Made by a program: the position numbers and the translations under genes
The notes under the pieces: generated by a model
The model's input: only the letters and a program-made list of their open reading frames with translations
Database searches by the model: none
What the model was told of the DNA's origin: nothing
Shown: positions 13,871 to 53,549 of the stretch, in pieces
Numbering within the stretch: position 1 is the first letter of the stretch
Layout of the letters: the number at the start of each line of letters is the position of its first letter
Origin: a virus
Virus record (IMG/VR): IMGVR_UViG_3300045988_154953
Length of the DNA stretch: 64,000 nucleotides
Direction: 5' to 3' (one strand)

Positions 13871-14947
13871 ATGACCGCCCAGGAATTGAAAAAACGACTA
13901 AAAGAAGATGATATTCGAAAGTTGTTGATAGAAATGGGAGCAACTTTCTATTATGAAGATGATGACATATGGATAACAGATACCATATGTCATCATGGAA
14001 CTAAACCGAAATTATATTTCTATAAAGATTCCATGTCATTTCATTGTTATACAGAATGTGGGCAAATGGACATTATCGGTGTAGTAATGGGATACAAAGA
14101 TTATGCTCAAGAAGATTTTCAAAAAGCTATCAATTGGATATGTAAAAAATTAAATATTGATAATTGTGAATATGGCTTTGGTAAACAGGAACAGATTTCA
14201 GATTGGGAATTTATTAGGAAATATAAAAGAAATAAAAAGGAAACAAAAGAAAAATCATTAATTCCATATAATAAGAGCATTTTGAATATTTTCCAAAAAT
14301 TCTATTCGAAACAATGGATTGATGAAGGAATTTCGATTAAGAGTATGAAAAAATACAATATTTTATATTCTACTTGGCAGCAAAAAATAATTATACCTCA
14401 TTATGATATGAATAATAGATTAGTTGGAGTTCGTGCAAGGTCAATGTTAGACGAAGATATTGAAATTTATGGTAAATATTCTCCATTTAAAGTGGGAAAT
14501 AAATTTTATAATCATTCTCTTGGTATGAATTTATTTGGATTAAATTATAACATAAACGCTATTCAAAAGAAAAGAAAAATAATGCTCGTTGAAGCCGAGA
14601 AATCTGTGCTTCAAACAGATACGATGTTCGGTGAAGATAACTTTACAGTCGCTTTGTGTGGAAGTAACTTAACAGATTATCAAAAGGGGATAATTTTAAT
14701 GCTCGGTGTAAGAGAAGTGATCATAGCATTAGATAAACAATATCAAACATTAGATTCAGAAGAATGTAAAAAATGGGCAAAACATATAAAGGATAAGATT
14801 ATTGATAAATTAAGTCCATTTTTTGTTGTATCTGTATTATGGGATACAAATGATTTACTTAAATATAAAGATAGTCCGACAGATAGAGGTAAAGAAACTT
14901 TACTTCAATTGATGGATAATAAAATATATGTAGGAACTAATCAATAA
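13871..14947 (+). CDS. dnaG: DnaG-like DNA primase
   Basis: CHC2-type zinc finger CHHG..HCYTECG and Toprim-like LVEAEKSV / IALDKQ motifs. Confidence 0.65.
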   Translation: MTAQELKKRLKEDDIRKLLIEMGATFYYEDDDIWITDTICHHGTKPKLYFYKDSMSFHCYTECGQMDIIGVVMGYKDYAQEDFQKAINWICKKLNIDNCEYGFGKQEQISDWEFIRKYKRNKKETKEKSLIPYNKSILNIFQKFYSKQWIDEGISIKSMKKYNILYSTWQQKIIIPHYDMNNRLVGVRARSMLDEDIEIYGKYSPFKVGNKFYNHSLGMNLFGLNYNINAIQKKRKIMLVEAEKSVLQTDTMFGEDNFTVALCGSNLTDYQKGIILMLGVREVIIALDKQYQTLDSEECKKWAKHIKDKIIDKLSPFFVVSVLWDTNDLLKYKDSPTDRGKETLLQLMDNKIYVGTNQ

Positions 14948-14962: not shown

Positions 14963-16702
14963 TTGAGTTTCAAATATGACGTATTAGGTAAGGTTAGATT
15001 CGGAAATGAGTTAGAAGATATTTTGAAATTAAAAGGTATCAAAGATATAGACTCCTTTCTGAATCCTACTATCAAAAATACAGAGAGTGAATTACTTTTT
15101 GATAATATAGAAAAAGCAAGAGATTTGTTTATAAAGCATATAAGCAATAAAGATGTTATAGATTTACTGGTAGATTGTGATGTTGATGGATTTACATCAG
15201 CATCCAATATTTATCAGTATATAAAAAGATTAAGTCCTGACATTGAAGTTAGATGTTTTATTCACAAAGGTAAAACTCATGGATTATCCGAATTTGTGGA
15301 TAGTATGTGTGAAGACGATTCAAATCTTGTTATTGTTCCAGATGCAGGTTCAGGAAATTTTAAGGAATGTGAAAAACTTATAACACATGGAAAAGATGTA
15401 ATTATTTTAGATCATCATAGTATTGATGCAAGTGATAATCCTGCAATAGTTGTAAATAACCAACTTTCGGATAGAATAACAGACAAAGCTATGACTGGTG
15501 TTGGAATTACATATAAATTCACAAAGCTATTGGATAAGTATTATGGTGTGAATTATGCAGATGATTATTTGGACTTAGTTGCGTTGGGGATGATTGGAGA
15601 TAGGGCTGATACATTTAATCTTCAAACAAGATATCTTATATTAAAAGGATTGGAACAGATACAAAATAAAGTTAATAAAAATAAACTTATATCTGTTCTA
15701 GTAGATGCTCAAATGTATTCAATGAATAATAAAATCACAATAAATGGAATTGGATTTTATGTATGTCCTCTTATGAACTCAATGATTCGATTGGGAGAAT
15801 ATGAAGATAAGTGTTATATGTTTGAAGCATTATGTAACTCTGATAGAATGCTTGACAGAAAAGTACGAGGAAAAGGTGTAGTCAATATGACTATTCAAGA
15901 ATATGTTCTAAAAGCTTGTCAATCATCAAATAGAAAACAGAAAAAAATAACAGAGGAAAGTGCTGCTGTTTTATCTGAGGAAATTAAGAAGTTTAATATG
16001 GACAAATTACCTATTCTTGTATGTAATGCAAGAGATGATGTTGATAGTAATTCAACAGGACTTATTGCAAATAGATTGGCTGATCAATACAGAAGACCAT
16101 GCTTATTAATGAGACGGGTGGGAGATATTTGCAAAGGTAGTGGTAGAGGTAGTGATAAATGCGAAATATTAAATTTTAATCAATGGTGTAAAGATACAGA
16201 ATTATTTAACAAAGTGAAAGGGCATCCAGAAGCATTTGGATGTGAAATTACTTATGAGAATACTAATAAATTATTATATTTGTTATCTACAATGAGAAAA
16301 ATTGATGAACCAACTTATCATGTATATAACGTTTATGAAGCTGATAAGATTTACGATCAAATTATTAAAAATGTAGCTAAATGGGATTGTATATGGGGTA
16401 ATTCTGTAAGTGAACCTATTTTCTTAATTAAAAGTGTACCTTGTAATAAATATAATTTGTATCTTCTTGGTTCTAAACAAAATAAAATTGAATTTACATA
16501 TCATAATATAAAATTTGTAAAACAAACAAAAGGTAGTTCATTGGCTTCTTTATACAAAGAGATTGTATCGATTGGAGAAAATGTTGAATTTGATATCATT
16601 GGTAGATTTTCAATCGATTACAAATCTGGAAAAACAGCACAAGTATTAATTGAAGATTGGATGTTTTACAAAAGTGATAAAGCGCAAGGATTTTTTGGTT
16701 AA
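14963..16702 (+). CDS. DHH-family phosphoesterase, RecJ-like
   Basis: DHH motifs DCDVDG, VPDAGS, ILDHHS and GDRAD. TTG start after aaggaagga. Confidence 0.65.
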   Translation: MSFKYDVLGKVRFGNELEDILKLKGIKDIDSFLNPTIKNTESELLFDNIEKARDLFIKHISNKDVIDLLVDCDVDGFTSASNIYQYIKRLSPDIEVRCFIHKGKTHGLSEFVDSMCEDDSNLVIVPDAGSGNFKECEKLITHGKDVIILDHHSIDASDNPAIVVNNQLSDRITDKAMTGVGITYKFTKLLDKYYGVNYADDYLDLVALGMIGDRADTFNLQTRYLILKGLEQIQNKVNKNKLISVLVDAQMYSMNNKITINGIGFYVCPLMNSMIRLGEYEDKCYMFEALCNSDRMLDRKVRGKGVVNMTIQEYVLKACQSSNRKQKKITEESAAVLSEEIKKFNMDKLPILVCNARDDVDSNSTGLIANRLADQYRRPCLLMRRVGDICKGSGRGSDKCEILNFNQWCKDTELFNKVKGHPEAFGCEITYENTNKLLYLLSTMRKIDEPTYHVYNVYEADKIYDQIIKNVAKWDCIWGNSVSEPIFLIKSVPCNKYNLYLLGSKQNKIEFTYHNIKFVKQTKGSSLASLYKEIVSIGENVEFDIIGRFSIDYKSGKTAQVLIEDWMFYKSDKAQGFFG

Positions 16703-24002: not shown

Positions 24003-24839
24003 ATGATAAAAATTGATGACGAGATTGTACAGATTGAAAAGTTTCCAGATGGTACACCTAGAATTAATATTGATACGAACGATATTTTAGAAAAGTATAA
24101 TGTTGGTTGCGGATTTATTATAATCACATGGTTGTATGAAAATGATGCTGAGATGTTCTATCTGTTATTAGTTAAGAAACACCTTGAAAGATTTTTTACT
24201 AATGTTGATTACTATTTATATCTTTCATATATACCAAATGCGAGGATGGATAGAACTAAATCAAATGATGAAGTCTTTACATTAAAGTATTTCTGTGACT
24301 TTATCAATTGGTTAAAATTTTCTGTTGTTTATGTATTAGATGCTCATAGTGATGTTTCAGTAGCATTAATTAATAACTGCTTCAATGAAAATCCAAAGAC
24401 TTATATCAATAATGCGCTTACTATAATCGCAAATAATGATATAATTCTATATTTCCCTGATGCTGGTGCAGCTAAACGCTACTCTGGATTATTCCCAGAG
24501 ATTCCTTATTGCTATGGTGAGAAGAATAGAGATTGGAAAACAGGTAAAATCCTTGGACTTAACGTCAGAACTAATGGTATTAAGCTTAAAGGAAAAGATA
24601 TTCTGATTATTGATGATATTTGCAGCTACGGTGGTTCAATATTTTATAGTGCTAAAACATTAAAAGAACTTGGTGTTAATAAAATTTATGCTTATGCAAC
24701 ACATACTGAAAATTCAGTTCTTGACCATGAGAAAGGTACACTTATTAAATCATTAGAAGATGGTACAGTAGAATGTCTATTTACAACCAATAGTTTATTT
24801 ACTGGTAAGCATAACAAAATCAGTGTTATGGAGGTTTAA
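24003..24839 (+). CDS. ribose-phosphate pyrophosphokinase (Prs)-like protein; candidate ADPR-pyrophosphate synthetase
   Basis: N-terminal FPDGT and the PRPP-binding loop ILIIDDICSYGGS. It overlaps the start of the Nampt-like gene. Confidence 0.6.
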   Translation: MIKIDDEIVQIEKFPDGTPRINIDTNDILEKYNVGCGFIIITWLYENDAEMFYLLLVKKHLERFFTNVDYYLYLSYIPNARMDRTKSNDEVFTLKYFCDFINWLKFSVVYVLDAHSDVSVALINNCFNENPKTYINNALTIIANNDIILYFPDAGAAKRYSGLFPEIPYCYGEKNRDWKTGKILGLNVRTNGIKLKGKDILIIDDICSYGGSIFYSAKTLKELGVNKIYAYATHTENSVLDHEKGTLIKSLEDGTVECLFTTNSLFTGKHNKISVMEV

Positions 24840-24840
24840 A

Positions 24841-26310
24841 ATGAATAATATCTCATTTATGTTGATGGCAGATACATATAAAAATACAAATCCAGATGCA
24901 ATGCCTCAAGGATTAACAAAATTAACATCATATATTACACCGAGAAAATCTATGTTTAAAAATATTGATAAAGTAGTTTTCTTTGGTTTACAGGGATTTA
25001 TTAAAGAATTCTTGATTGATTTGGTGAATGATTCTTTCTTTAATAGAGATAGAAAAGAAGTTCTTAATGAATATAAAACATACCTTGATGCACAGATTGG
25101 TTCTCATAGTTATGATATCCAACGAATCGCAGATTTATATGATTTGGGATATCTACCAATTGAGATGAAGGCGCTGCCAGAAGGTTCATTAGTATCAATG
25201 GGTGTTCCATGTATCGAACTTACAAATACTCATCCAGATTTTGCTTGGGTTGTGCAATGGATCGAATGTATATGTCAGTCAGAAACTTTTGGTACATGTA
25301 ATTGGGCTACTATGGCTCATGAGTATCGTAAATTAGCAAATGTATTCTACAACAAAACAACAGACTCTAATCCTGCAATGGCAATGGCCGATTTTGGATT
25401 TAGAGGACTTGGTGTAGATAATGGTATTAGAGCTAGTAGTTCATGGTTGCTGTCATTTAACAAAACTTCTACAATCCCGGCAATGCAGTATATTGATAAA
25501 ATGTATTCTGCAGAATGCGCTAAAAATCATATTGGTATTGGTGCTGTAAGTCTTGAACATGCAACAGTTTGTGCTAATCTTGCTGTATGTGAAACAGAAG
25601 AAAATCTATTAAGAAGATTACTTACAACAGTTTATAAAGATACTTCGTTTAGTTACGTTTCTGATACATTCGATTACTGGTCTCTTATCAATGATACTCT
25701 CCCTAAACTTCGAAAAGAAATTGAAGAACATAATGGTAAATTCCTTGTTCGTCCAGATAGCGGTGATATTGTAGATATTTCTGTTAAAACAGTACAGAGA
25801 TTATGGAAAATTTTTGGTGGAACAGTCAATCTAAAAGGTTATAAAGAATTAGATCCTAAAGTTGGCATCATTTATGGTGATGGTTGTCAATATGAGAAAA
25901 TTAAAGAAATTTGGACAAAGCTTGAAAGTTTAGGTTTTGCTGCAAATACAATTCTTTTTGGTGTTGGTGCATTCTCATTTACAGCTATGTGTACTCCAGA
26001 TGATGGTATGGTTTGTCTCACAAGAGATACATTTGGTTTCGCAATGAAAAGTACAGATTGTGTAATAGATGATCGTGAACATACTATCCAAAAAAATCCT
26101 AAAACTGATCAGAATCATCTAAAAAAATCGCATAAAGGTTTATGTTGTGTAACAAAAGAAGATGATAAATTTGTTTGTCATGATGGTTACACATCCGAAA
26201 CCATTCCAGAAGATAATCTTCTTACAACAGTATTTAAAGATGGAAAACTTGTACGAGAAGATATATTTATAAATATTCGTAATAGATTAAATGGAGAAAA
26301 TGATGATTAA
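24841..26310 (+). CDS. nadV: nicotinamide phosphoribosyltransferase family protein (NadV/Nampt-like)
   Basis: ADTYK, FGFRG, RPDSGD and IYGDG motifs. ATG 24841 follows ggagg, and the track start 24823 lies upstream in frame. Confidence 0.8.
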   Translation: MNNISFMLMADTYKNTNPDAMPQGLTKLTSYITPRKSMFKNIDKVVFFGLQGFIKEFLIDLVNDSFFNRDRKEVLNEYKTYLDAQIGSHSYDIQRIADLYDLGYLPIEMKALPEGSLVSMGVPCIELTNTHPDFAWVVQWIECICQSETFGTCNWATMAHEYRKLANVFYNKTTDSNPAMAMADFGFRGLGVDNGIRASSSWLLSFNKTSTIPAMQYIDKMYSAECAKNHIGIGAVSLEHATVCANLAVCETEENLLRRLLTTVYKDTSFSYVSDTFDYWSLINDTLPKLRKEIEEHNGKFLVRPDSGDIVDISVKTVQRLWKIFGGTVNLKGYKELDPKVGIIYGDGCQYEKIKEIWTKLESLGFAANTILFGVGAFSFTAMCTPDDGMVCLTRDTFGFAMKSTDCVIDDREHTIQKNPKTDQNHLKKSHKGLCCVTKEDDKFVCHDGYTSETIPEDNLLTTVFKDGKLVREDIFINIRNRLNGENDD

Positions 26311-29375: not shown

Positions 29376-29391
29376 TTACAAGGAGAAGAAT

Positions 29392-30048
29392 ATGATTAAA
29401 CTATTTACTCATAGTGACAGAGATGGACAAGGGTGCGCTGTTTTAGCTAAATTAGCTTTTGAAGACAATGTAGACATTGAATATTGTAACTATGACGATA
29501 TTAATGATAAAGTAAAAGATTTTTGCGCTAATTATTGTAGAGATAGAAACGTTAGAGAAAAATATGAACATGTTTATATTACAGACATTTCTATTACAGA
29601 AGAATTAGCTAGAAAAATAAATAATTTATCTCTATTTGAACATATCACATTATTAGACCATCATCCCACAGCTTTAAAATTGAATAAATTCAGTTGGTGC
29701 AAAGTTTCTGTTGATAATTCAGAAGGATTAAAGACATCTGGTACAGAATTGTTCTACCAGTGTCTACTTTCAACAAACTGCTTTTCTGATAAATTAAAAA
29801 GCAGTGAATACTTGAAAAGATTCGTTGAATTGACAAGGGATTATGATACCTGGAGATGGACAACTCTTGGTGAAAACGGGCTTATTTGTAAACAGTTAAA
29901 TGACCTGATGTACATTTATGGTATGGATAACTTTACTGATTGGTGTATAAAAGGAATATTAAATAAATCATTTCCTAGATTATCATTAGAAGATCAAATT
30001 GTTCTCAGTATTAGACAGCAGGAGATTGAAAATTTATTTAGGAAATAA
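29392..30048 (+). CDS. DHH-domain-only phosphoesterase-like protein
   Basis: HSDRDG, ITDIS and LLDHHPT motifs in DHH order. At 218 aa it lacks a DHHA1 domain. Confidence 0.5.
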   Translation: MIKLFTHSDRDGQGCAVLAKLAFEDNVDIEYCNYDDINDKVKDFCANYCRDRNVREKYEHVYITDISITEELARKINNLSLFEHITLLDHHPTALKLNKFSWCKVSVDNSEGLKTSGTELFYQCLLSTNCFSDKLKSSEYLKRFVELTRDYDTWRWTTLGENGLICKQLNDLMYIYGMDNFTDWCIKGILNKSFPRLSLEDQIVLSIRQQEIENLFRK

Positions 30049-32951: not shown

Positions 32952-32968
32952 TTTTAGAAAACGAATTT

Positions 32969-33132
32969 GTTTGGTTATGGATTAAAATTTGATTCATAAC
33001 CAAACGATAAAGTAATCAGTATATTAAGTATTATTACTTGATATCTGCAGGTGATTTTGCACCTGAAAAGTGAGGTTAATAACACTCACTAAAATCTGTG
33101 TAATTAGATTCGAAATGTACATGTGAATTTGA
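32969..33132 (+). ncRNA. tracrRNA-like structured RNA, module A (boundaries approximate)
   Basis: Hairpins at 32969-33005, 33010-33039, 33048-33065 (caggtg/cacctg) and 33069-33090 (agtgag/ctcact). Next come taaaat and the anti-repeat ctgtgtaatt (33096-33105), which is the exact reverse complement of repeat bases aattacacag. A second partial anti-repeat lies at 33117-33130. Confidence 0.5.
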
Positions 33133-33236
33133 GGTTTTAGAGATATATTAAATTACATAGATACAAAACTCATGGACTCTATAAGATAAGTATGGTGTGG
33201 TTTTAGAGATATATTAAATTACACAGGTACATAAAT
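33133..33236 (+). CRISPR. mini CRISPR array A: 2 repeats, 1 spacer
   Basis: R1 33133-33170 ggttttagagatatattaaattacatagatacaaaact. Spacer 33171-33198 catggactctataagataagtatggtgt. R2 33199-33236 is 34/38 identical to R1. Period 66 nt. Confidence 0.55.
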
Positions 33237-33247
33237 AAGTCTATAGA

Positions 33248-33276
33248 TTTACATAATTATAAAATAATTATAAATA
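33248..33276 (+). promoter_or_regulatory. candidate promoter of the nuclease gene
   Basis: TTTACA, a 17-nt spacer, then TAAATA, about 20 nt upstream of ATG 33296. The background is AT-rich, so the call is weak. Confidence 0.3.
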
Positions 33277-33295
33277 TGAAGGATAACAAATAGCA

Positions 33296-35026
33296 ATGAA
33301 TACAATAAAAAATACATATATACGAACATTAAAATTTAATTTAAATTTAACACCAAAATTCGAAACAGAAGAAGATAATAAAAAATATATAAATGATGTG
33401 TATTCATATCTAAGAGATGCTATATGGGCACAAAATAGAGCTATGAATATTGTTCTTGATCGAACTAAAGAAGCTTATACACTTGGACGAGGGATGAACA
33501 GGGTTAAAGAAATATATTATTCATATTCCCATCAAAAACCAATTAGTAATGACAAAAAAGAAAGCTTCTTAGAATCATTGTTGCAGTATGCACCTATAGA
33601 CGATCAATTTGTAAAAAATGAAGTTAAAAAATTACGTAAATTCTATGAATCTAAAAAGAAACCACCAAAAGAAGAAACTGTTTCTAAAAATTGTGAAGCT
33701 TTAAAAAATAAGTACATAAAATATGTTGGTAAATCAAAAGATGATGTCAAACGAGAATTAGATTTACTTGAAAATTATTGTGCATATCCAGAAGATATTT
33801 ATGAAAAATTTGCTAACGGATTAAGCACACCTGCATATATAAAACAGAAAGTAGAATCTTATTGGAAACAGGATGGAATAAAAACAAAAGTTATTTACTC
33901 GATGGATGAAAATCTCAGACGAATAAAAGATGCTCCATTGTTCATACCACCAAATGTTTTTTACAATAAAAAAGATGAATTAATCGGTTTGGTATATGAT
34001 TATACTGACTATATATCTTTTTTAGAAGATTTAGAAAATAAACGAAATGTAAATATATATTTAAGTATTCCATATAAAAAAGGTGAAGATAAATTAAAAT
34101 TCAAATTAGTTCTAGGGAATCCACATAAGTCTCGTGATTCTAGATTATCCATAAAAAGAATTTTTGAAGAAGAATATAGAATTAAAGGCAGCAGTATTGG
34201 ATTTACGAAGAATAAAGAAACTGGCAAAAATACAAATTTAACTTTATATCTTACTGTTGAAGTCCCACAAAATAAAGATAATACTCTTGATGAGAATGTA
34301 GTTGTTGGAGTAGATGTCGGCATCGCTATTCCATGTGTATGTGCTTTAAATAACGATAAATATACAAGAGAAAATATTGGAAGTTATGATACTTTATTTG
34401 CTAAAAGAACCCAGTTTAAAATGCAGAGAAGTAGATTGAATAGTCAATTAAAATTATCAAAGGGTGGACATGGAAGAAAAAGAAAGTTAAAGAAATTAGA
34501 ATTACTTTCAGGAAAAGAGAAAAATTACGTTGATACAGAATGTAGAAAGTATGCAAGTGATGTAATTAAATTTTGTTTAAAACATCATGCTAAATATATT
34601 AATTTAGAGCACCTAAAAGGATATCGAGAGAATCCTAAAGTATTAGCTGGATGGAGTTTTTATAAAATCCAAACATATATTGAACAAGCAGCTGAAAAAC
34701 ATGGAATTATTGTAAGGAAAATTAATCCATGTTATACATCACAGATTTGTAGCGTATGTGGAAATTGGCATCCAGAGAATAGACCAAAGGGTAAATTAGG
34801 GCAAGCATATTTTAATTGTCATAATATTGATTGTAAAACTCATAATACAGATTTGTATAAATATGGTATTAATGCAGACTTTAATGCTGCTAGGAATATA
34901 GCAATGTCAACATTATTTATTACCGATTCTGATGAGATCACAAAGAAACATTGGAAAGAAGCCAGAGAATATTATGGTATAGATGAATCGGATGATAAAG
35001 AAGAAAAATTAAATAAAGTAGCCTAA
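33296..35026 (+). CDS. cas12: compact type V CRISPR effector / TnpB-like RuvC nuclease (Cas12f-like)
   Basis: RuvC-I VVGVDVGIAIP, GGHGRKRKLKKL, RuvC-II YINLEHLKG, WSFYKIQTYIEQAAEKHGI, zinc ribbon CYTSQICSVCG..FNCHNIDCKTH, and RuvC-III INADFNAARNIA. Repeat arrays flank it on both sides. Confidence 0.8.
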   Translation: MNTIKNTYIRTLKFNLNLTPKFETEEDNKKYINDVYSYLRDAIWAQNRAMNIVLDRTKEAYTLGRGMNRVKEIYYSYSHQKPISNDKKESFLESLLQYAPIDDQFVKNEVKKLRKFYESKKKPPKEETVSKNCEALKNKYIKYVGKSKDDVKRELDLLENYCAYPEDIYEKFANGLSTPAYIKQKVESYWKQDGIKTKVIYSMDENLRRIKDAPLFIPPNVFYNKKDELIGLVYDYTDYISFLEDLENKRNVNIYLSIPYKKGEDKLKFKLVLGNPHKSRDSRLSIKRIFEEEYRIKGSSIGFTKNKETGKNTNLTLYLTVEVPQNKDNTLDENVVVGVDVGIAIPCVCALNNDKYTRENIGSYDTLFAKRTQFKMQRSRLNSQLKLSKGGHGRKRKLKKLELLSGKEKNYVDTECRKYASDVIKFCLKHHAKYINLEHLKGYRENPKVLAGWSFYKIQTYIEQAAEKHGIIVRKINPCYTSQICSVCGNWHPENRPKGKLGQAYFNCHNIDCKTHNTDLYKYGINADFNAARNIAMSTLFITDSDEITKKHWKEAREYYGIDESDDKEEKLNKVA

Positions 35027-35038
35027 GTGCTACTAAAC

Positions 35039-35183
35039 CAGTCGAAAGACTGCGGTGTGTTTTGGTGTGTTTATATAGCCTCAAATATAAACACCGCTAT
35101 TGTGGATACAATAGTACGCCGAAAGGTGAGGATTCGTCACTCACTAAAATCCATGTTAAAACTTGTATCTATGGTAATTTGGG
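35039..35183 (+). ncRNA. tracrRNA-like structured RNA, module B (boundaries approximate)
   Basis: Hairpins cagtc-gaaa-gactg (35039-35052), gtgtttatat/atataaacac (35067-35094), ctattgt/acaatag (35097-35114) and gtgag/ctcac (35126-35144). Next come taaaat and the anti-repeat ccatgttaaa (35151-35160), the exact reverse complement of repeat bases tttaacatgg. Confidence 0.55.
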
Positions 35184-35352
35184 GATTAAGAAGTATATCA
35201 TTTAACATGGGTACAAAACTCTATAGAGATACACTGTATATTTAGTTATGATTAAGAAGTATATCATTTAACATGGGTACAAAACTCAGCACTGCATTTA
35301 TTTTTAGGCAGGCACGATTAAGAAGTATATCATTTAACACGAATATAAAAAT
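35184..35352 (+). CRISPR. mini CRISPR array B: 3 repeats, 2 spacers
   Basis: The repeat gattaagaagtatatcatttaacatgggtacaaaact lies at 35184-35220 and 35250-35286 (identical). A third copy at 35316-35352 is degenerate at its 3' end. Spacers: ctatagagatacactgtatatttagttat and cagcactgcatttatttttaggcaggcac. Period 66 nt. Confidence 0.7.
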
Positions 35353-35369
35353 GAAACGGAGACAACTAA

Positions 35370-36400: not shown

Positions 36401-37276
36401 ATGAAAGTAGTCAAGAGAGATTGTACGCTGGTAGATTTTGATAAAAATAAAATTTACACAGCGATAATGAAAGCGATGAAGGATGGATCAGGAATTGTGA
36501 AGCCGAAGGTAGCAGAAGACATCTCAAATGAGATATATGAAATGCACAAAAATGACGATGAAATCGACATTTCAACCATCGAATCAGAGGTCTTCGATAA
36601 ATTGATTACAAAAAAACAAAGACTTACTGCCAGAGCTTATGAAGGATATAGAAGTAAACGAGAGCTGCAACGAGAATATAACACTATAGATGATGAAATA
36701 ATCGGCCTTGTCGAAGATAAAAATGAATATTGGAAAGATGAAAATGCAAACAAAAATCCAATATTAAATCCAACGAAAAGAGATTATATTGCCGGTTCAG
36801 TAAGTACAGATGCAACAAAAAGATATTTATTATCACCAGAAATAGTACAAGCTCATATGGATGGTATTATTCACTTTCATGATGCAGATTATTTTATTCA
36901 ACATATGCATAATTGTGATCTAGTTAATCTTGAAGATATGTTACAAAATAACACTGTAATTAGTGGAGTATTAATTGAAAAACCACATTCTTTTTCTACT
37001 GCTTGTAATATAGCTACACAAGCCATTTCACAAATAGCAAGTAATCAATATGGGGGTCAAAGTGTTTCTTTGGCACATCTCGCTCCTTTCGTAGATATTT
37101 CAAGACAAAAAATAAGAGAAGAATTAGTAGAAGAATTTTCTTTATTGGGTTTCTCTAAGGGTGGAATTATAGACGAAGATTTTAATGCAGTTGTAGAAAA
37201 ACGTTTAAAGAAAGAAATTGAAAAAGGTGTTCAGACTATTCAATATCAATTAGTTACACTTATGACAACAAACGGT
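36401..37276 (+). CDS. nrdD: anaerobic ribonucleoside-triphosphate reductase, exon 1
   Basis: ATP-cone N-terminus (VVKRDCTLVDFDKNKI) and class III RNR body. The reading frame continues as ..LMTTNG | QAPFITIF.. when joined to 38332. Confidence 0.8.
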
Positions 37277-38331
37277 TAATTTTGGCTGTTGTAAAATCTT
37301 GTGAACCATGCCAATGGGTGTCTAATAAATTAGGCTAACGGTCAACTAACCTCAAGGGTAAGGTGGTAAGAGAACCTAAGTCCTGTAATAAGGATATGGT
37401 AATACCGTGTTAAGCGTTTTGTTTATAAAAATAAAAAAAGAAAGGGGGGGAATGAAAAATGTATGGATATATATATTTAACTACAAATCTAATCAACGAT
37501 CGAAAATATATAGGAAAACATAAAAGTGAATTTTATGACGATAAATATTATGGGAGTGGAAAGATTCTTTTGCAGGCTATATCAAAATATGGTATTGAAA
37601 ATTTTACGAATGAAATATTATACGAAGCGGATTACGCAGAAGAATTAAATAAAAAAGAAAAAGAATATATTTCATTATATAGAGGAAAATATGGAAAACA
37701 AATGTATAATATAGCGTCTGGAGGAGACGGGGGAGATACATACTCATCTAAATCTGAAGAAGAAAAAGAAGATTTTGTTAAGAAAATGGAGAAAATAAAT
37801 AGAGACAGATGTTCTTCGAAAGAATTTAAGATACAAGCTTCTGAACGTTTAACTAAAAAATATTCCAACATTGAAGAAAGAAAATTACAATCCGAAAGAA
37901 TTAAAAAAGCTTGGGATAATGAGCAATTAAAGGAAGATCAGAGCGAGCGATTAAAAAATTATTATAAAACACATAAAAAAGAAAATTCATATAATAACAT
38001 TCCATGTGGGATTAAATTTAATGGGGTAAAATATGAATTTGAAAGTGTTAAGCAATTAAAAAAATTCATAAAAGAAGAGTTTAATTTTGTCCCAGGAAAT
38101 TCAAAGATAAAACAGATGATGATTGATGGGACTAATGGTATTCCATATGTTTCTTTCTTTAAAAAATACAGTAATTTGAATGGCGCGTTACTTTATTATA
38201 AACAAAACGAAAATGTAGAGACTATGGGTGATGAATGTAGCCCAGTAGAGCATGAGATAGGCACATGCTCCAAGTGCAAGACTGAAATAGAAGAGATAGT
38301 CCGCTCTGCATAGAAATATGCAGATGGGGTG
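37277..38331 (+). mobile_element. group I intron interrupting nrdD
   Basis: The 5' exon ends in U (37276), which pairs as U-G in a P1 helix aacggu/gcuguu (37271-37276 with 37085-type guide at 37285-37290). The intron ends in G (38331). It has a GC-rich structured 5' core (37300-37420) and a conserved-looking aagagatagtcc near the 3' end. It contains a homing endonuclease ORF. Confidence 0.75.
37459..38313 (+). CDS. GIY-YIG homing endonuclease (intron-encoded)
   Basis: N-terminal GYIYLTTNLINDRKYIGKH..YYGSG is a GIY-YIG motif. It lies inside the nrdD intron. Confidence 0.8.
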   Translation: MYGYIYLTTNLINDRKYIGKHKSEFYDDKYYGSGKILLQAISKYGIENFTNEILYEADYAEELNKKEKEYISLYRGKYGKQMYNIASGGDGGDTYSSKSEEEKEDFVKKMEKINRDRCSSKEFKIQASERLTKKYSNIEERKLQSERIKKAWDNEQLKEDQSERLKNYYKTHKKENSYNNIPCGIKFNGVKYEFESVKQLKKFIKEEFNFVPGNSKIKQMMIDGTNGIPYVSFFKKYSNLNGALLYYKQNENVETMGDECSPVEHEIGTCSKCKTEIEEIVRSA

Positions 38332-39699
38332 CAAGCCCCTTTTATTACAATTTTCATGTATCTTAATGAAGCCAAAAACGAACAAGAAAAACACGATTTA
38401 GCTTTATTAATCGAAGAAATGCTTCATCAAAGAATCAAAGGAGTAAAAAATAAAGAAGGAGTTTATGTAGCACCTGCATTTCCTAAACTAATTTATGTTT
38501 TGGAAGAAGATAATATTCATGAAGATTCAAAATATTGGTATTTGACAAAATTAGCTGCGGAGTGTTCTTCTAAACGTTTAGTTCCAGATTATATTTCAGA
38601 AAAAATTATGCTTGAAACAAAAGGTGATGTATACACCTGTATGGGATGTAGATCATTTTTAACAGTAGATAGATTTTCTGATAAAGTTTCTAACATTGCC
38701 AATGCGAAAAATTACGAACCTGACAAACACAAATATTACGGACGCTTCAATCAAGGTGTAGTTACACTTTCACTACCAGATATTGCTTTATCTTCAGAAG
38801 GTGATTTCGATACATTTTGGAAAATTTTTGAAGAAAGAACTGAATTGTGTCATAAAGCACTTAGAATCAGACATGAAAGATTGCGCGGTACATTATCTGA
38901 TGTTGCTCCTATATTGTGGCAAGATGGTGCTCTTGCTCGATTAAAAGAACATGAAAAAATCGATAAACTTCTTTATGATGGTTATTCAACTATATCTTTG
39001 GGATATGCCGGTTTATATGAATGTGTAAAATATATGACTGGACATTCTCATTCTGATGAAGGTATTGGCGAAGAGTTTGGATTAAAAGTTATGCAAGCTC
39101 TTAATGATAAGTGTGCTCAGTGGAAAAATGCTGAAAATATAGATTATAGTTTGTATGGTACGCCTCTCGAAAGTACAACGTATAAATTTGCAAAATGCTT
39201 AAAGGCTCGTTTTGGTAAAGATGTATTTATTAGATTGGATGGATTTGATAGAAATTATATAACTAATTCATATCATATTCCAGTGTTTGAGCCAATTACA
39301 GCGTTTGAAAAACTTAGAATAGAAGCAAAATTCCAATTATTAAGTCCTGGTGGAGCCATTTCTTATGTAGAAGTACCAAGCATGTCTCATAATATTAATG
39401 CTTTGATCGAAGTTATCAAATTCATTTACTATCACATTCAGTATGCAGAAATTAATACTAAAAGTTGCTACTGTGAAAAATGTGGCTATGATGGAGATAT
39501 TCCTCTTGTACTAGATGAAAATGGTAAATATAGATGGGAGTGTCCACAATGTGGCAATATAGATAATACTACCATGGATATTGCTTTTAGAGTCTGTGGT
39601 TACATTGGTACTGCAAAAAATGGTGGTAATCAAGGACGATATGGTGATGTACATGATCGTGTATATCACTTAGATGATATAGAATATAATGAGAAATAG
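38332..39699 (+). CDS. nrdD: anaerobic ribonucleoside-triphosphate reductase, exon 2
   Basis: Continues the class III RNR. A C-terminal zinc site CYCEKCG..CPQCG is followed by a glycyl-radical-type RVCGY motif. Confidence 0.8.
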   Translation, partial: QAPFITIFMYLNEAKNEQEKHDLALLIEEMLHQRIKGVKNKEGVYVAPAFPKLIYVLEEDNIHEDSKYWYLTKLAAECSSKRLVPDYISEKIMLETKGDVYTCMGCRSFLTVDRFSDKVSNIANAKNYEPDKHKYYGRFNQGVVTLSLPDIALSSEGDFDTFWKIFEERTELCHKALRIRHERLRGTLSDVAPILWQDGALARLKEHEKIDKLLYDGYSTISLGYAGLYECVKYMTGHSHSDEGIGEEFGLKVMQALNDKCAQWKNAENIDYSLYGTPLESTTYKFAKCLKARFGKDVFIRLDGFDRNYITNSYHIPVFEPITAFEKLRIEAKFQLLSPGGAISYVEVPSMSHNINALIEVIKFIYYHIQYAEINTKSCYCEKCGYDGDIPLVLDENGKYRWECPQCGNIDNTTMDIAFRVCGYIGTAKNGGNQGRYGDVHDRVYHLDDIEYNEK

Positions 39700-43139: not shown

Positions 43140-44327
43140 TTGAATAATGTGAAAGCAATTATAAAAGGAATGACATTATATAAACGCAGCGATGGCCGAT
43201 ATGAAGGCCGTATCACGGTTAATGGCAAGCGTAAGAGTTTTTATGGTACAACGAAAGTTGAGGTGAAGAATAAAGCCAAAGAGTATTTAACAAAAGTTGA
43301 AAACGGCTATGTTGAGCCTACTAAAATTATATTCAATGAATACATAGAATACTGGCTGAAAACTTATAAGAAGAATAAGATTCAAGATTCGTCATACAGT
43401 CGTCTGTACACAACATATTTACATCAAATTAAACCAACAATAGGTCAAATGAAGATGGGGAACATTAAGACGAAAGACATCCAAAATCTGATTGATGAAT
43501 ATGCTAATCCAACCAGTGCTGATGTAAAACCTTTGTCGCTGTCTGGCTTAAAGAAGCTTACGCATCTTATAAGGCCATGTATGCAAATGGCTGTTACAGA
43601 AGGACTGTTGCAAAAGAATCCCTGTGATAATGTGGTCTTTCCGCAAGAAGACTGTATTCAAGTAGATACAAAGCAGCAGTACAGTTTGTCAGATGATGAA
43701 TTGAAAAGAATTAGAATGGCAGCGTTGACGAAGTATAAAAATGGACGGTATCGCAGTCGGGATTGGATTGTTCTTTTGATTATGTTGAACACAGGTTTAC
43801 GTGTCGGTGAAATGTTGGCTCTGACATGGAAGGATATTGATTTTGAGAATCGAACAATGCATATCTGTAAGACGCTTCAAAGTAACATTAGAAACTATGA
43901 TGATTTAGAACATGTTGTTTATTATTCGAAGATTAAGAAGTCTGCAAAGACAAAGAACGGTGTCAGATATATTTCATTGAATACGCAGGTTCTTCAGTAT
44001 CTTCAGATGTTAAGGGGCTTTGATGAAGAGAATAAAATCAAATCCGATTATGTTGCATGTACAACTGTAGGGACTATGAATTGTTCAAGAAATCTACAAA
44101 GAAGTCTTGACAGATTAGTAAAATTTGCAGGAATACAACCAGAGTCACATGTATCATTACATACTTTAAGACATACGTTTGGATCAACATTATTAAGACA
44201 TGGGATAGGTATCGAAGTTATTAGCAAACTAATGGGACATGCAAATATTACTATTACATATAACAAATATATCCATGTCATACAGGAAGAGCAGGCCAAA
44301 GCAATGAATTTAGTTAATGTGTGCTGA
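43140..44327 (+). CDS. int: tyrosine integrase
   Basis: C-terminal catalytic pattern GLRVGE..HTLRHTFGS..LMGHANITITYNKYIHV. TTG start 7 nt after ggaggtg. Confidence 0.85.
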   Translation: MNNVKAIIKGMTLYKRSDGRYEGRITVNGKRKSFYGTTKVEVKNKAKEYLTKVENGYVEPTKIIFNEYIEYWLKTYKKNKIQDSSYSRLYTTYLHQIKPTIGQMKMGNIKTKDIQNLIDEYANPTSADVKPLSLSGLKKLTHLIRPCMQMAVTEGLLQKNPCDNVVFPQEDCIQVDTKQQYSLSDDELKRIRMAALTKYKNGRYRSRDWIVLLIMLNTGLRVGEMLALTWKDIDFENRTMHICKTLQSNIRNYDDLEHVVYYSKIKKSAKTKNGVRYISLNTQVLQYLQMLRGFDEENKIKSDYVACTTVGTMNCSRNLQRSLDRLVKFAGIQPESHVSLHTLRHTFGSTLLRHGIGIEVISKLMGHANITITYNKYIHVIQEEQAKAMNLVNVC

Positions 44328-45341: not shown

Positions 45342-46322
45342 TTATATAATTTCTGCGTAAATATTTTTCCAGTAATTAAATCTACCTTTTACAGACTGTG
45401 AGCTACGTGTACCGCCTTTAGAGTAGATTTCCTTGTATGCTGTATTATCCTTATATGTATCTGAAAATTCTTTAATTGCTGCTACAAGTTTATCAAAATT
45501 TTTTCCATCTCTCAAACACTGTACACCGATGTAAAGAATCATTGGAATAGAAGCATATAGGTAAGGTGTCTTATCCATCTTTTCATCCAATAAATCGAGA
45601 ACATCTACTATAGCAGTTGCGTCAGATTCATCAATATTACCTGCATACCAAACTACAAACTTGTCAAGTGTCGGTTTAGAGAAGCTTAACGTTTCTTTAT
45701 CATCTGTTATACTAAGTAACATAAGCGTTTCTCGTATAAGATCTCTGTTGTTATCGCCCAATAGTTGTTTTGGACTCAAAATCTTCTTGAAGAATGGATG
45801 TTCAGCAAGTGGAAATACAATATCACTAACTACTTTAGGTTCAATAGCTGTACGTTTCTGAGTAGCGGTGAGTGCTTTACCGTTGTTTTGTCTTCGGTAC
45901 ATCTCTCTGATTTCTTCGTCAGTTGCATTTGTGAATATGTAAAGTGTGATTTCAAAATTTAATATTTTGTCTTGGAGTACAGGATCCAATTCAGAAAATT
46001 TCTTACCAGCTGTATCATACGGAACATTATCTATAAGAACTGGTAGATTGTTATTGGATAATGCAAATCCATCCTCTATATATTCTGCAAAAGACGTACT
46101 ACGTTGTATACCATCAAATATACACCTAATATCATCTAATACAGCAGCTCTTATTGGATCGATTAAGAAATCACGAAAGATAGAATCTATCAAAAGACAT
46201 TTCTGAGGTTTTGTCCATTGATCTTCTTTTCTCTGCAAATAATGATGTAGATTATATTTCTTTTCATCTCGAATATCTTTAGTAAAATTTGCTAATAGTC
46301 GTTTTTCACTTTTACACTCCAT
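45342..46322 (-). CDS. DUF262 (ParB/GmrSD N-terminal-like) domain protein
   Basis: YLQRKEDQWTKPQKCLLIDSIFRDFLI and DGIQRST match the DUF262 QR..W..LIDS and DGQQR pattern. Strong SD ggaggtg. Confidence 0.65.
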   Translation of the reverse strand: MECKSEKRLLANFTKDIRDEKKYNLHHYLQRKEDQWTKPQKCLLIDSIFRDFLIDPIRAAVLDDIRCIFDGIQRSTSFAEYIEDGFALSNNNLPVLIDNVPYDTAGKKFSELDPVLQDKILNFEITLYIFTNATDEEIREMYRRQNNGKALTATQKRTAIEPKVVSDIVFPLAEHPFFKKILSPKQLLGDNNRDLIRETLMLLSITDDKETLSFSKPTLDKFVVWYAGNIDESDATAIVDVLDLLDEKMDKTPYLYASIPMILYIGVQCLRDGKNFDKLVAAIKEFSDTYKDNTAYKEIYSKGGTRSSQSVKGRFNYWKNIYAEII

Positions 46323-52403: not shown

Positions 52404-53549
52404 TTATGTACCAAATGCATACCATGTATAACCAGAAGAAACAGTAGTACTTCCTTTAAATAATGCATTTTTTAACTCAGTTGCAGTATATGTTACTGTC
52501 CCTCCATTTGTACTAAATGTTCCAGCACTTGAAGAAGGATTTGAAAGATAACTAGATGTACTAATACCAGATCCTCTAGCTTTTTCACCGTCCCATATTA
52601 AAACATTCGTACCATTAGACCCTGTATTAAAAGAATCTTTTATAATGATTACTTTTTCTACACTTGTAAGACCAGTATCAAAACTTACTGGATTAGTTGT
52701 CCCAGTTCCTGTTATTTGTCCTGTAGTATATCTTGTAGATTGTACAATACCTGTACCAGTTACTTTAATGCCTGCGGCAGAAGTAAATGTTTTGCCAGCA
52801 GCTACATCAGCAGTTGTTGCATCACCAAGATTGGTCAGAGGTGTTTTTAATGTTTGCCAACTTCCGATGCGACAAAGAACATCTTCCGTTCGTTTAAAGT
52901 TAAATTTAATAACATCAGCACCATCATTTGTTATTGTTGCATTTGATAAAATGTCACTATAATTACTTTTGACTTCTTTTACTGTACCAGTTATTTTTTT
53001 GCCATTTACATAGCTTGTTTTACCTTCAGCTATATCGCTAGATGTTGCTGTTGCATCAGAAGTATCAACACCTGACCCAGATCCACTTCCGACATATGTA
53101 CCAGTTACACCAAATATAGAAGTTCCATTTTTAATATTTTCGGCTATTAAATTTGAGTCACCTTTGATTGTTTGAGTTCCGGTAAGATATGTTCCAGATG
53201 CGATAGTTTGAGAAAATGTAGAAGGAGTAATAGTTGTGGTAGATTTTGTTGTAAGTTGTTTTGTACTATTTTTCGTACCAGATGTAACGTAGCCAGCTGA
53301 TTGAGTGGAAGATGCTGTGATTAATCCAGAATTAGAAATAGAAATGGATGGAGTTGCTTGAGTAACAGTGTTAATTGCGTTAACAGTAACACTAGACAAG
53401 CCGTCATAATTATTATCTGCTTTTATGGTTTGTATACTTGTTGATGGAGTAACAGTTTTATCTTGTAATGATATATCACTTAGTAATACTTTTGTGCCAC
53501 CTTTCGTACAAACTTTATTTTCACCTAAGTAAACTGCCATTAATTCCAC
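52404..53549 (-). CDS. tail fibre or structural protein
   Basis: Ser/Thr/Gly-rich with repeated VTP..IQTI..G..VTV style segments. It overlaps the upstream stop. Confidence 0.55.
   Translation of the reverse strand: MELMAVYLGENKVCTKGGTKVLLSDISLQDKTVTPSTSIQTIKADNNYDGLSSVTVNAINTVTQATPSISISNSGLITASSTQSAGYVTSGTKNSTKQLTTKSTTTITPSTFSQTIASGTYLTGTQTIKGDSNLIAENIKNGTSIFGVTGTYVGSGSGSGVDTSDATATSSDIAEGKTSYVNGKKITGTVKEVKSNYSDILSNATITNDGADVIKFNFKRTEDVLCRIGSWQTLKTPLTNLGDATTADVAAGKTFTSAAGIKVTGTGIVQSTRYTTGQITGTGTTNPVSFDTGLTSVEKVIIIKDSFNTGSNGTNVLIWDGEKARGSGISTSSYLSNPSSSAGTFSTNGGTVTYTATELKNALFKGSTTVSSGYTWYAFGT

Follow-up and report, generated by a model that had tools for sequence, protein, structure and literature searches.

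The window (the whole 64-kb stretch of phage DNA that was analyzed) most probably encodes a functional type V-F1 (V-U3 branch) CRISPR-Cas12f system that is organized as guide cassettes. This assignment is based on the family, fold, and catalytic residues of the protein, on RNA pairings supported by covariation, on the conservation of the cassettes, and on matches between spacers and protospacers.

Locus and phage context

The carrier is a jumbo-size, gut-type phage with a genome of ~215 kb, of which 64 kb was examined. Genes in the window include those for DnaB, RecJ, DNA polymerase, exonuclease V, and tail fibres. The locus was identical base for base in two independent assemblies, one of which is the 215,456-bp contig ERZ27262592 k119_156924, and an assembly artefact is therefore excluded. 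In GenBank, the nearest phage match was only a 48-nt, chance-like one to Staphylococcus phages. The features of the locus are as follows:

33014..35290, + strand: Cas12f island, comprising the upstream cassette, cas12f, the downstream scaffold, and some of the downstream array
33048..33065, + strand: upstream stem 1 (CAGGTG/CACCTG), predicted by folding
33054-33059, + strand: loop of stem 1, ATTTTG, predicted to form a pseudoknot with CAAAA at the repeat 3' end
33069..33090, + strand: upstream stem 2 (GTGAGG...CACTCAC), the scaffold hairpin with the highest conservation
33094..33105, + strand: upstream anti-repeat, pairing with repeat U1 (33151-33162) and the equivalent part of U2
33127..33133, + strand: upstream leader end ATTTGAG, abutting the first repeat
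33134..33169, + strand: repeat U1, GTTTTAGAGATATATTAAATTACATAGATACAAAAC, 36 nt
33170..33199, + strand: spacer U1, TCATGGACTCTATAAGATAAGTATGGTGTG, 30 nt
33200..33235, + strand: repeat U2, terminal, with a degenerate 3' end (..GGTACATAAA)
33296..35026, + strand: cas12f gene, 576 aa
35039..35165, + strand: downstream tracr-like scaffold, longer than the upstream scaffold
35039-35052, + strand: 5' hairpin of the downstream scaffold
35059-35064, + strand: downstream unpaired GTTTTG, pseudoknot partner
35067-35115, + strand: two more stems of the downstream scaffold
35125-35145, + strand: downstream stem 2
35151-35160, + strand: downstream anti-repeat
35177..35183, + strand: downstream leader end ATTTGGG, one mismatch to ATTTGAG
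35184..35219, + strand: repeat D1, GATTAAGAAGTATATCATTTAACATGGGTACAAAAC
35220..35249, + strand: spacer D1, TCTATAGAGATACACTGTATATTTAGTTAT
35250..35285, + strand: repeat D2, identical to D1
35286..35315, + strand: spacer D2, TCAGCACTGCATTTATTTTTAGGCAGGCAC
35316..35351, + strand: repeat D3, terminal, with a degenerate 3' end

The first-pass annotation had described a tracr-array-cas-tracr-array layout on a single strand, flanked by genes for an SPFH protein and a guanylate kinase and unaccompanied by cas1, cas2, or cas4 anywhere in the 64 kb. The layout stands, and the flanking genes were identified as SPFH/Band_7 and guanylate kinase. No PADLOC model for Cas1, Cas2, or Cas4 matched any of the 72 ORFs in the window that are 85 aa or longer (64 kb of ~215 kb), which agrees with the third statement; cas9 and csn2 were likewise without a PADLOC match among these ORFs, no match of Cas1 strength was found near nine related loci, and no sigma factor is adjacent to cas12f. 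The locus had no Rfam match at E <= 1, nor did the whole window at the gathering score. A promoter scan returned fewer sites than were found in shuffled sequences and was uninformative. The only terminator-like match on the + strand was the first hairpin of the downstream scaffold.

The island (33014-35290) is shared as one block, with 92% identity over 2.29 kb, with a related phage (L003:3746-6004). In that phage it is flanked by other genes, and positions 29391-30045 of the window are matched instead by L003:6898-7554. The nucleases of the two phages are 98% identical; the island occupies different gene neighbourhoods in them.

The nuclease

As judged from profile searches and a structural model, the ORF at 33296-35026 is a full-length Cas12f1 of the V-F1/V-U3 branch. 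The Pfam profile Cas12f1-like_TNB (PF07282) matched the zinc ribbon between RuvC-II and RuvC-III (1.9e-13, 50.8 bits against a cut-off of 26.3), and the PADLOC profiles Cas12u3 (1.2e-74 over residues 32-545) and Cas12f (2.6e-70) were also matched. The NCBIfam profile guided_TnpB (NF040570) was matched with 126 bits against a cut-off of 100, an assignment at superfamily level only, and Cas12f2 (NF049972) scored 84.8 bits, below its curated cut-off of 450. The top PDB sequence match obtained with phmmer was CnCas12f1 (8hr5; 3e-47). An AlphaFold monomer model of the 576-aa ORF (pLDDT 85) was used in a Foldseek search, in which CnCas12f1 ranked first (1.6e-26), followed by the Al3, As, Sp, and Un1 Cas12f proteins; the top 21 matches were Cas12f chains without exception. 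The parts of the protein, by residue, are as follows:

7-18: WED strand
25-201: REC helices
215-324: WED
340: RuvC-I aspartate (D340)
364-429: helical region
438: RuvC-II glutamate (E438)
485, 488, 508, and 513: zinc-ribbon cysteines
528: RuvC-III aspartate (D528)

The original assignment to Cas12f/TnpB therefore holds across Pfam, NCBIfam, PADLOC, phmmer, and AlphaFold/Foldseek. The catalytic layout, earlier described as complete, was found to be so: all six motifs that had been quoted are present with their order kept (residues 336, 390, 434, 479, 506, and 525), and the RuvC D-E-D triad and the zinc ribbon are intact. In an alignment of 30 homologues, D340, E438, D528, and the four zinc-ribbon cysteines were invariant. 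The N-terminal ~330 aa had been termed unassignable, and this view was abandoned; the region corresponds to the WED/REC lobe of Cas12f, as the model aligns end to end with solved Cas12f1 and has the same N-terminal architecture (WED strand, helical REC, WED, RuvC). The full N-terminus is common to only ~4 clusters at 50% identity. Homologues are annotated in their sources as IS605 OrfB transposase.

Guide cassettes and their private scaffolds

Direct-repeat arrays with a shared 66-nt period had been reported on both flanks, each preceded by a hairpin-rich, relatively GC-rich stretch containing a 10-nt complement of its own repeat. All of this was reproduced. Two repeats upstream and three downstream were delineated with TRF, the period being composed of a 36-nt repeat and a 30-nt spacer. 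The upstream complement is CTGTGTAATT at 33096 against AATTACACAG at 33217 (with a G-U pair against repeat 1), and the downstream complement is CCATGTTAAA at 35151 against TTTAACATGG at 35201 and 35267. GC contents were 0.34 and 0.40 in the scaffolds versus 0.25-0.28 in the arrays and the ORF. Both cassettes folded better than 200 of 200 shuffles (z = -3.8 and -3.6). The upstream scaffold is far shorter than known Cas12f tracrRNAs, and for this reason it might serve as a weaker or differently used guide.

The upstream and downstream cassettes are homologous to each other. Compensatory changes were present at 11 of the 18 pairs in the consensus cassette structure; over 103 distinct cassettes, 97.4% of cells paired and 13 of 18 pairs were compensatory (slid controls, 27-46%). 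Helix 1 (stem 2) was paired in 96.9%, with compensatory changes in six of its nine pairs. For the pseudoknot, 138 modules in all were considered, and eight repeat-end classes with 133 non-identical modules were tabulated. The complement covaried with the class of the repeat end in 126 of the 133 non-identical modules, including all of those in the classes TTTTG (87/87), TTTCG (9/9), TTCAG (12/12), and CTTTG (3/3). The energy of the tracr:repeat duplex across the family was -12.7 kcal/mol with a cassette's own repeat versus -6.9 kcal/mol in cross pairings (p = 1e-29); for the upstream anti-repeat, these values were -13.4 and -7.3 kcal/mol, respectively. [quoted passage not shown] The 5' halves of the repeats drift freely, and complementarity resembling a Cas9-type anti-repeat for this half was found only at chance level in the window.

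With a covariance model, 204 cassettes of full length were detected; they come from 84 sequence sources, almost all of which are loci of related phages. (Counts from this model were used because those from nhmmer were too high, the 3' part of the profile matching lone repeats.) All were on the strand of the nuclease gene, with one to six per locus, and within the window only the two expected sites were found. The placement of an array beside the gene and on its strand is kept in relatives, the arrays hold only 0-4 spacers, and a catalytically intact Cas12f is present wherever cassettes occur. By these comparisons, multi-cassette loci with predicted private tracrs are the rule in the family of the window phage and not a one-off. 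In one relative (L004), a solo repeat runs directly into the conserved cas12f 5' UTR.

Spacers and their targets

Spacer D2 matched, at 30 of 30 positions, a protospacer with a 5'-TTTA flank in a metagenome contig (L169:1359-1388), and 28 of 30 positions matched in three further contigs (L170-L172), again with a TTTA flank. This protospacer adjoins a replication-initiator-like gene and an invertase; the predicted target of D2 is a gene in a replication-initiator/invertase mobile element. The possibility that D2 is aimed at a rival's orthologue was rejected, since the proteins of L169 are without homologues in the window or the related loci. A spacer from a relative (L081) matched the cas12f gene of a rival clade at 27-29 of 30 positions with a TTTG flank, its match to its own gene being only 23 of 30. 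Another (L058) had a 30/30 match in a plasmid of Waltera intestinalis (Lachnospiraceae); this protospacer is flanked by GGTACA, and the nuclease of the source locus is 44% identical and belongs to a distant clade. The flanks TTTA and TTTG from two protospacers suggest a 5'-TTTR PAM, the third being GGTACA.

None of the three window spacers was matched in exact scans of IMG/VR, and U1 and D1 were also without targets among GenBank phages and PLSDB plasmids. Spacers of three relatives matched only their own arrays in the IMG/VR exact scans. Among the 185 spacers of the family, none matched GenBank phages, one matched a PLSDB plasmid, and none matched the window. Self-targeting was considered and rejected: no window spacer has a second copy with three or fewer mismatches, and the best partial matches did not exceed those of shuffled controls. 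Action against competing mobile elements or in regulation had been proposed for the system. The former is favoured by the 30/30 match of D2 and by the targets of relatives; the latter is without support, given that partial self-matches were not above chance and that the RuvC triad is invariant.

Leader ends and spacer acquisition

The heptamer ATTTGAG is the leader-anchoring motif of type II-A Group 1 arrays (PMC5382924), and the leader-repeat junction ATTTGAG/GTTT corresponds to the signal for type II-A integration. At the leader end it was exact in 63 of 126 cassettes and present with at most one mismatch in 104 of 126; it preceded none of 170 internal repeats. The upstream array has the exact II-A Group 1 format (ATTTGAG/GTTT...AAAC with a 36-nt repeat; 33127-33169), and the junction of the downstream array reads ATTTGGG/GATT...AAAC. 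Arrays of related phages show gain of spacers at the leader end, and the Cas12f system is thus not static despite having no adaptation genes nearby.

A possible explanation, which we put forward tentatively, is that II-A machinery of the host (Cas1-Cas2-Csn2, perhaps with Cas9) inserts spacers into phage Cas12f arrays built in the II-A format. The phage would supply the effector and one private tracr per array, and the formation of memory would be outsourced to the infected cell. If this is true, each cassette would stand alone as a leader-array-tracr unit that updates itself and is read by a type V nuclease, and the whole would amount to a natural CRISPR hybrid of two types, divided between virus and host.

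Proposed mechanism and alternatives

In the proposed mechanism, a cassette would be one transcription-oriented unit, in which a tracr-like scaffold is followed by ATTTGAG as the leader end and then by a mini-array (36-nt repeats, 30-nt spacers). After transcription and processing, both of which we infer, the scaffold would pair twice with its own repeat: the anti-repeat with the middle of the repeat, and a 5' UUUUG with the CAAAA at its 3' end, forming a pseudoknot. With these two pairings, the guide would lie on the 3' side of the repeat, the arrangement seen in guide RNAs of Cas12f and TnpB. The first repeat-spacer unit would fold back on the scaffold in cis, giving a natural single-guide-like RNA, and later units would pair in trans. 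The RNA-loaded Cas12f, presumably assembled as a dimer, would recognize protospacers with a 5'-TTTR flank and cut the DNA of other mobile elements in a shared host.

Alternatively, the 2.3-kb island could home in the manner of a gene drive and serve mainly its own spread, by cutting relatives that co-infect the cell with a rival allele or with no island and being copied by recombinational repair. We consider this unlikely. The different neighbourhoods of the island in two phages with 98%-identical nucleases are consistent with it, as is the relative's spacer that targets the cas12f of a rival clade and spares its own allele; however, D2, alone among the window spacers in having a known target, matches an unrelated mobile element rather than a phage relative, and the window is matched by 0 of 185 spacers. 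Still less probable is a regulatory system, in which the cassettes, and especially the upstream one, would tune cas12f, phage genes, or host genes by partial complementarity instead of destroying targets. The upstream cassette does lie directly before cas12f on the same strand, abutting its 5' UTR, the solo repeat of L004 continues into that conserved 5' UTR, and exapted TnpB/Cas12f regulators are known (PMC13472631). Against these points stand the invariance of the RuvC triad, partial matches of the three spacers within the window that were not above those of shuffled controls, and the existence of a perfect 30/30 external target.

The resemblance to type II-A also raises the idea that the cassettes are RNA decoys, mimics of host CRISPR RNAs that would soak up or misdirect host Cas9/Cas12. 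The repeats start GTTTTAGAG and end CAAAAC as type II-A repeats do, the leader end is II-A-like, and published work reports RNA anti-CRISPRs of phages as well as viral sgRNAs. The free drift of the repeat 5' halves, the absence of a Cas9-type anti-repeat from the window, and the constant company of a catalytically intact Cas12f make this reading very improbable. Hardly any weight is given to a plain IS200/IS605-type TnpB insertion with an omega-RNA and incidental repeats. While the guided_TnpB score above the NCBIfam cut-off and the IS605 OrfB transposase annotation of homologues would accord with such an insertion, the immediate neighbours are the SPFH and guanylate kinase genes with no Y1 transposase, and the fold is nearest to CRISPR-associated Cas12f1, not TnpB. 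Furthermore, repeats and spacers alternate with a fixed period, spacers match foreign DNA, and arrays of relatives gain units at the leader end; arrays with private scaffolds lie on both sides in place of a single omega-RNA. The guide-cassette CRISPR-Cas12f system is thus retained as the preferred reading.

Comparison with known systems

The closest known systems are those of V-F1 Cas12f1, represented by CnCas12f1 (PDB 8hr5; PMC7229846). [quoted passage not shown] The window protein is larger (576 aa versus 422-497 aa) with an expanded REC lobe, the system is carried by a jumbo-size phage, and the locus adds an upstream cassette with a shorter scaffold; in the phage family, each mini-array has a covarying tracr, with 1-6 cassettes per locus and 0-4 spacers. 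The arrangement had been called non-standard. This does not hold for the missing adaptation genes, which are normally absent in the V-U3 branch (PMC7229846), and the dual-module layout recurs across the phage family. A literature search of incomplete coverage found no description of a multi-tracr or cassette arrangement in Cas12f or phage systems. The private-tracr cassettes and the II-A-format array are new features; the phage-borne Cas12f is otherwise of a known kind.

Cas12p, the "Cas12 hacker" (bioRxiv 10.1101/2025.01.20.633832; PDB 9jfs), is likewise phage-borne, 500-700 aa in length, and tracrRNA-dependent, with a ~37-nt repeat, an AAAC:UUUG pseudoknot, and rival nucleic acids as its proposed target; the text consulted mentions no layout with several cassettes for it. 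Identity with Cas12p was rejected, as it was absent from the sequence matches and ranked 25th in Foldseek (E 3.5e-11, 12% identity). Type II-A Group 1 arrays (PMC5382924; Wei et al. 2015, PMC4330368) also have ATTTGAG abutting a 36-nt GTTT...AAAC repeat, 30-nt spacers, and leader-end growth in which the first repeat is duplicated. In contrast to them, the phage arrays are without adjacent cas9, csn2, cas1, and cas2, their RNA partner is complementary to the repeat's 3' half, and a type V effector would read the guide on the 3' side of the repeat.

Virus-borne mini-arrays and the type I-F system of ICP1 (PMC11656645) are similar in that phages carry 1-2 spacers against competing viruses or a host-resident mobile island, and adaptation genes are often missing. 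Such mini-arrays normally depend on a host effector, whereas the window phage brings its effector and tracrs, and Vibrio phage ICP1 encodes a full class 1 system, adaptation module included. The dCas12f-sigmaE systems (PMC13472631) also feature Cas12f homologues, a scaffold and guide in one unit, and discontinuous small arrays in the locus, but they are nuclease-dead, from Bacteroidota, linked to rpoE, and transcription-activating, unlike the window locus with its intact RuvC triad and no adjacent sigma factor. A nuclease-dead Cas12f/TldR-type regulator was rejected on the same two grounds, the triad being both intact and invariant.

Implications

One compact nuclease appears to serve several mutually mismatched tracr:crRNA pairs, which would constitute a natural set of orthogonal Cas12f scaffolds; such a set is relevant to multiplexed editing and to the question of what share of the scaffold Cas12f actually reads. 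The scaffold-repeat-guide cassette, in some cases with just one repeat, resembles a surviving transition form between TnpB, with its single omega-RNA, and type V systems, in which tracrRNA and crRNA are separate. It has long been asked how viral and V-U systems that lack adaptation genes gain spacers, and the combination of a II-A-type junction, leader-end gain, and no nearby adaptation genes makes their source of spacers directly testable. The predicted targets, namely a plasmid, a replication-initiator/invertase element, and the cas12f of a rival phage, would be concrete uses of phage CRISPR in gut-type Clostridia.

Locus architecture and authenticity

The 576-aa ORF contained every protein motif quoted in the first-pass annotation, in the order described there, and was flanked on both sides by arrays with a period of 66 nt. 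The features of the locus were as follows.

33127-33133: ATTTGAG leader end of the upstream array
33134-33169 and 33200-33235: upstream 36-nt repeats, separated by a single 30-nt spacer (U1)
33296-35026 (+): 576-aa ORF, nuclease gene
35177-35183: ATTTGGG leader end of the downstream array
35184-35219, 35250-35285 and 35316-35351: downstream repeats, with two spacers (D1 and D2)

The final repeat of both arrays was degenerate at its 3' end. Homology between the two intergenic regions extended past the repeats, both contained the previously reported 10-nt perfect complement to their own repeat, and the folding of both surpassed that of 200/200 shuffles. The window DNA is phage; it encodes DnaB, RecJ, DNA polymerase, exonuclease V and tail fibres. 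The same locus was found without differences in two independent assemblies (in one of them on a 215,456-bp contig); since its features were also re-found, the observation is confirmed and is not an artefact.

Identity of the nuclease

The ORF scored above the cut-offs of Pfam Cas12f1-like_TNB and NCBIfam guided_TnpB and far under that of the NCBIfam model for Cas12f2, which was rejected. PADLOC returned Cas12u3 (1.2e-74, covering residues 32-545) and Cas12f (2.6e-70). By sequence, the closest solved structure was CnCas12f1 (8hr5; 3e-47), followed by further Cas12f1 proteins. An AlphaFold model built with 30 homologues (pLDDT = 85) was aligned over its full length with CnCas12f1 by Foldseek (1.6e-26), then with Al3, As, Sp and Un1 Cas12f; TnpB, Cas12p, Cas12m and Cas12k ranked far below the Cas12f1 structures. 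The N-terminal 330 aa, earlier called unassignable, can on this modeled full-length match be assigned to WED/REC:

Residues 7-18: predicted WED strand
Residues 25-201: predicted enlarged helical REC lobe
Residues 215-324: predicted remainder of WED

The nuclease family comprised 153 clusters (50% identity) at E <= 1e-30. The full N-terminus was common to only about four of these clusters. In an alignment of 30 sequences from the family, D340, E438 and D528 were invariant, as were all four cysteines of the zinc ribbon. Its sequence and fold, together with the RNA topology and the logic of the locus, make the system one of the Cas12f1 (V-F1/V-U3) kind; comparison of membership excluded Cas12p, Cas12f2, a dCas12f regulator and a plain TnpB insertion.

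Structure and covariation of the guide cassettes

Related loci were gathered from ENA/Logan assemblies (nucleases 98%, 74% and 53% identical) and IMG/VR; all those taken had non-coding, repeat-bearing flanks on both sides of the nuclease gene. Twelve cassettes were aligned from the conserved GTGAGG hairpin through the end of the first repeat. RNAalifold recovered this hairpin and a long-range anti-repeat:repeat helix with compensatory changes at 11/18 pairs. The cassette covariance model gave 204 full-length matches in 84 sources, every one on the same strand as the nuclease gene; its matches in the window were the two expected sites and nothing else. Over 103 distinct cassettes, 97.4% of cells were paired and compensatory changes affected 13/18 pairs; when the partner was slid by 1-3 columns as a control, pairing fell to 27-46%. 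Between the window and the locus with the 98%-identical nuclease, a C to T change in the anti-repeat was compensated by G to A in the repeat.

In a second scaffold-repeat contact, a short stretch of the scaffold's 5' part complemented the 3'-terminal bases of the repeat and covaried with them:

Repeat end CAAAA, upstream TTTTG: 87/87 cassettes
Repeat end CGAAA, upstream TTTCG: 9/9 cassettes
Repeat end CTGAA, upstream TTCAG: 12/12 cassettes
Repeat end CAAAG, upstream CTTTG: 3/3 cassettes
Repeat end CCAAA, upstream TTTGG: 4/4 cassettes

Judged from this covariation, the contact corresponds to the known pseudoknot of Cas12f, Cas12p and TnpB guide RNAs (see bioRxiv 10.1101/2025.01.20.633832 for the Cas12p guide RNA), which would locate the guide 3' of the repeat.

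In multi-cassette loci, the scaffold:repeat energy was -12.7 kcal/mol for a scaffold's own repeat vs. -6.9 kcal/mol for its neighbours' (p = 1e-29). The corresponding values in the window were -13.4 (own) and -7.3 kcal/mol (other) for the upstream scaffold, and -14.4 and -4.1 kcal/mol for the downstream one. Because each scaffold covaries with and best fits its own repeat, the real unit is a private tracr plus a mini-array. Loci carried 1-6 cassettes, and the cassettes (n = 187) held one (31), two (78), three (55), four (16) or five (7) repeats. One locus, L014, had one cassette upstream and five downstream of the nuclease gene. The two modules noted earlier are therefore both present but are not peculiar to this phage: a design shared across the family takes this form here.

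The five tandem cassettes 3' of the nuclease gene were located at L014:3460-4470 and, in a second locus that also had one upstream, at L047:3446-4375; each combined a scaffold of its own with a distinct repeat and 1-2 spacers. At L004:3870-4000, in another related locus, the upstream cassette was a single intact repeat abutting the conserved cas12f 5' UTR; it lacked a spacer and any further repeat, and could be either a decayed cassette or a guide with an autoregulatory role.

Spacer gain and array format

As first reported, Cas1, Cas2 and Cas4 were absent from the window (none matched by PADLOC among 72 ORFs of at least 85 aa), and PADLOC found no Cas1-strength match in the 2.5-6 kb surrounding nine related loci. 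V-U3 systems normally lack adaptation genes (PMC7229846). The arrays are nonetheless not static, given their spacer turnover and nested series. All three window spacers differed from those of the 98%-identical relative, with scaffolds about 95% conserved. Within one clade, for which many genomes were sampled, arrays formed nested series with differences confined to the leader end:

Series 1: s38-s39, s42-s38-s39, s47-s42-s38-s39
Series 2: s43-s44, s61-s43-s44, s60-s61-s43-s44

In both, the newest repeat duplicated the first repeat exactly, and mutations sat in older repeats. Such series carry the signature of integrase-mediated, leader-polarised acquisition.

Among 126 non-identical cassettes, the 7 nt 5' of the first repeat were ATTTGAG in 63 and within one mismatch of it in 104; before internal repeats, the motif occurred within one mismatch in 0/170 cases. 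First repeats started with GTTT (86/126) and ended with AAAC (85/126), and 190/264 spacers were 30 nt long. This is exactly the format of the Group 1 type II-A leader-repeat junction (ATTTGAG/GTTT, 36-nt repeat, AAAC end). For II-A adaptation, PMC5382924 (citing Wei et al. 2015) gives ten leader bases and one repeat as necessary and sufficient. The phage arrays may thus be loaded by type II-A machinery of the host. This proposal is limited by its coverage, 64 kb of a ~215-kb genome, by the chance that the ATTTGAG motif has another role, and by the lack of a common 3' flank among the three protospacers described below.

Reviews and papers already describe compact type V systems that phages carry without adaptation genes. 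In the literature searched, of which coverage was incomplete, no paper described cassettes with their own covarying tracr for every mini-array, cassettes flanking the gene on both sides, or a type V effector reading arrays with a type II-A leader-repeat format.

Island mobility and other window genes

The block 33014-35290 was 92% identical to L003:3746-6004, in the relative with the 98%-identical nuclease. There the island was bordered by different genes, and DNA 0.9 kb downstream of it aligned with window 29391-30045. A shared island with differing borders indicates that it moves or recombines as a unit. GmrSD_N-like (DUF262) nuclease-domain proteins were encoded at window 45345-46322 (-) and at L003:405-1868, adjoining the cas12f island.

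The nrdD gene (anaerobic ribonucleotide reductase; 36401-39699) was broken precisely at profile position 154/155, its two parts being the ORFs 36401-37279 and 38329-39699. The 1.05-kb gap contained a 284-aa ORF (37459-38313) without a Pfam match. PADLOC homing-endonuclease models matched somewhere among the window ORFs, and no group I/II intron in the window reached the Rfam gathering score. The split resembles an interruption by an intron, intein or homing endonuclease. A tyrosine integrase (43140-44327; Phage_integrase 1.8e-31, with an N-terminal SAM-like domain) suggests that the ~215-kb phage may be temperate or have an integrative module. Genes for nicotinamide phosphoribosyltransferase and NAD synthase, with an isochorismatase/nicotinamidase-like gene, formed an NAD salvage/synthesis set (24823-26310 and neighbours); one proposed role of such sets is to counteract host defences that deplete NAD. 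Two ORFs matched the Mtd_N (major tropism determinant N-terminal) domain, and our guess is that these are the tail-fibre-like ORFs at 53543-55045 (-) and 59054-61705 (-). No reverse transcriptase was among the families listed for the window, and a diversity-generating retroelement was not established.

Guide targets and function

The window spacers had no second copy or significant partial match within the window and were absent from IMG/VR and from GenBank phages. In a metagenome scan, D2 matched L169:1359-1388 perfectly (30/30), with TTTA immediately before the site, which fixes the repeat/spacer boundary at 36/30 nt. The protospacer falls within a 110-aa ORF, homologues of which had the site at 28/30 with an identical TTTA flank. 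On a 103-kb contig, their neighbours were a replication-initiator/DnaD-like gene, Cro/CI-type HTH genes, phage-family small genes and a serine invertase/resolvase whose DNA was 66-68% identical to resolvases of small Clostridium plasmids. This neighbourhood and resolvase indicate that the D2 target is another mobile element in a Clostridia-type host. The host-type contig L170, on which the D2 target is found, held ordinary copies of IS200/IS605 TnpA-TnpB as well as the toxin-antitoxin pair YoeB/Phd (13328-14700 and 16307-16387).

Two of 185 family spacers gave further informative matches. One (L081:4067-4096 vs. L056:2946-2975) matched 27-29/30 positions, next to a TTTG flank, in the cas12f of a rival phage clade, whereas the phage's own cas12f allele matched at 23/30 (7 mismatches) with a TTGG flank. 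The other (L058, cassette at 3538) matched at 30/30 a 5.6-kb plasmid of Waltera intestinalis (Lachnospiraceae; LC817946.1:4496-4525, L186:3001-3030), where the match spans the start of a small, unannotated ORF together with its ribosome-binding site. Its 5' flank was GGTACA rather than TTTR, which suggests that the L058 clade uses a different PAM.

Genome-binned relatives of the nuclease belonged to Lachnospiraceae, Ruminococcus and related Clostridia. The first-pass annotation had guessed at action against competing mobile elements or at regulation. The targets of the D2, L081 and L058 spacers favor the former. As read from the spacer matches, interference with competing mobile elements is the best-supported function of the system, and regulation, decoy activity and transposition are not.
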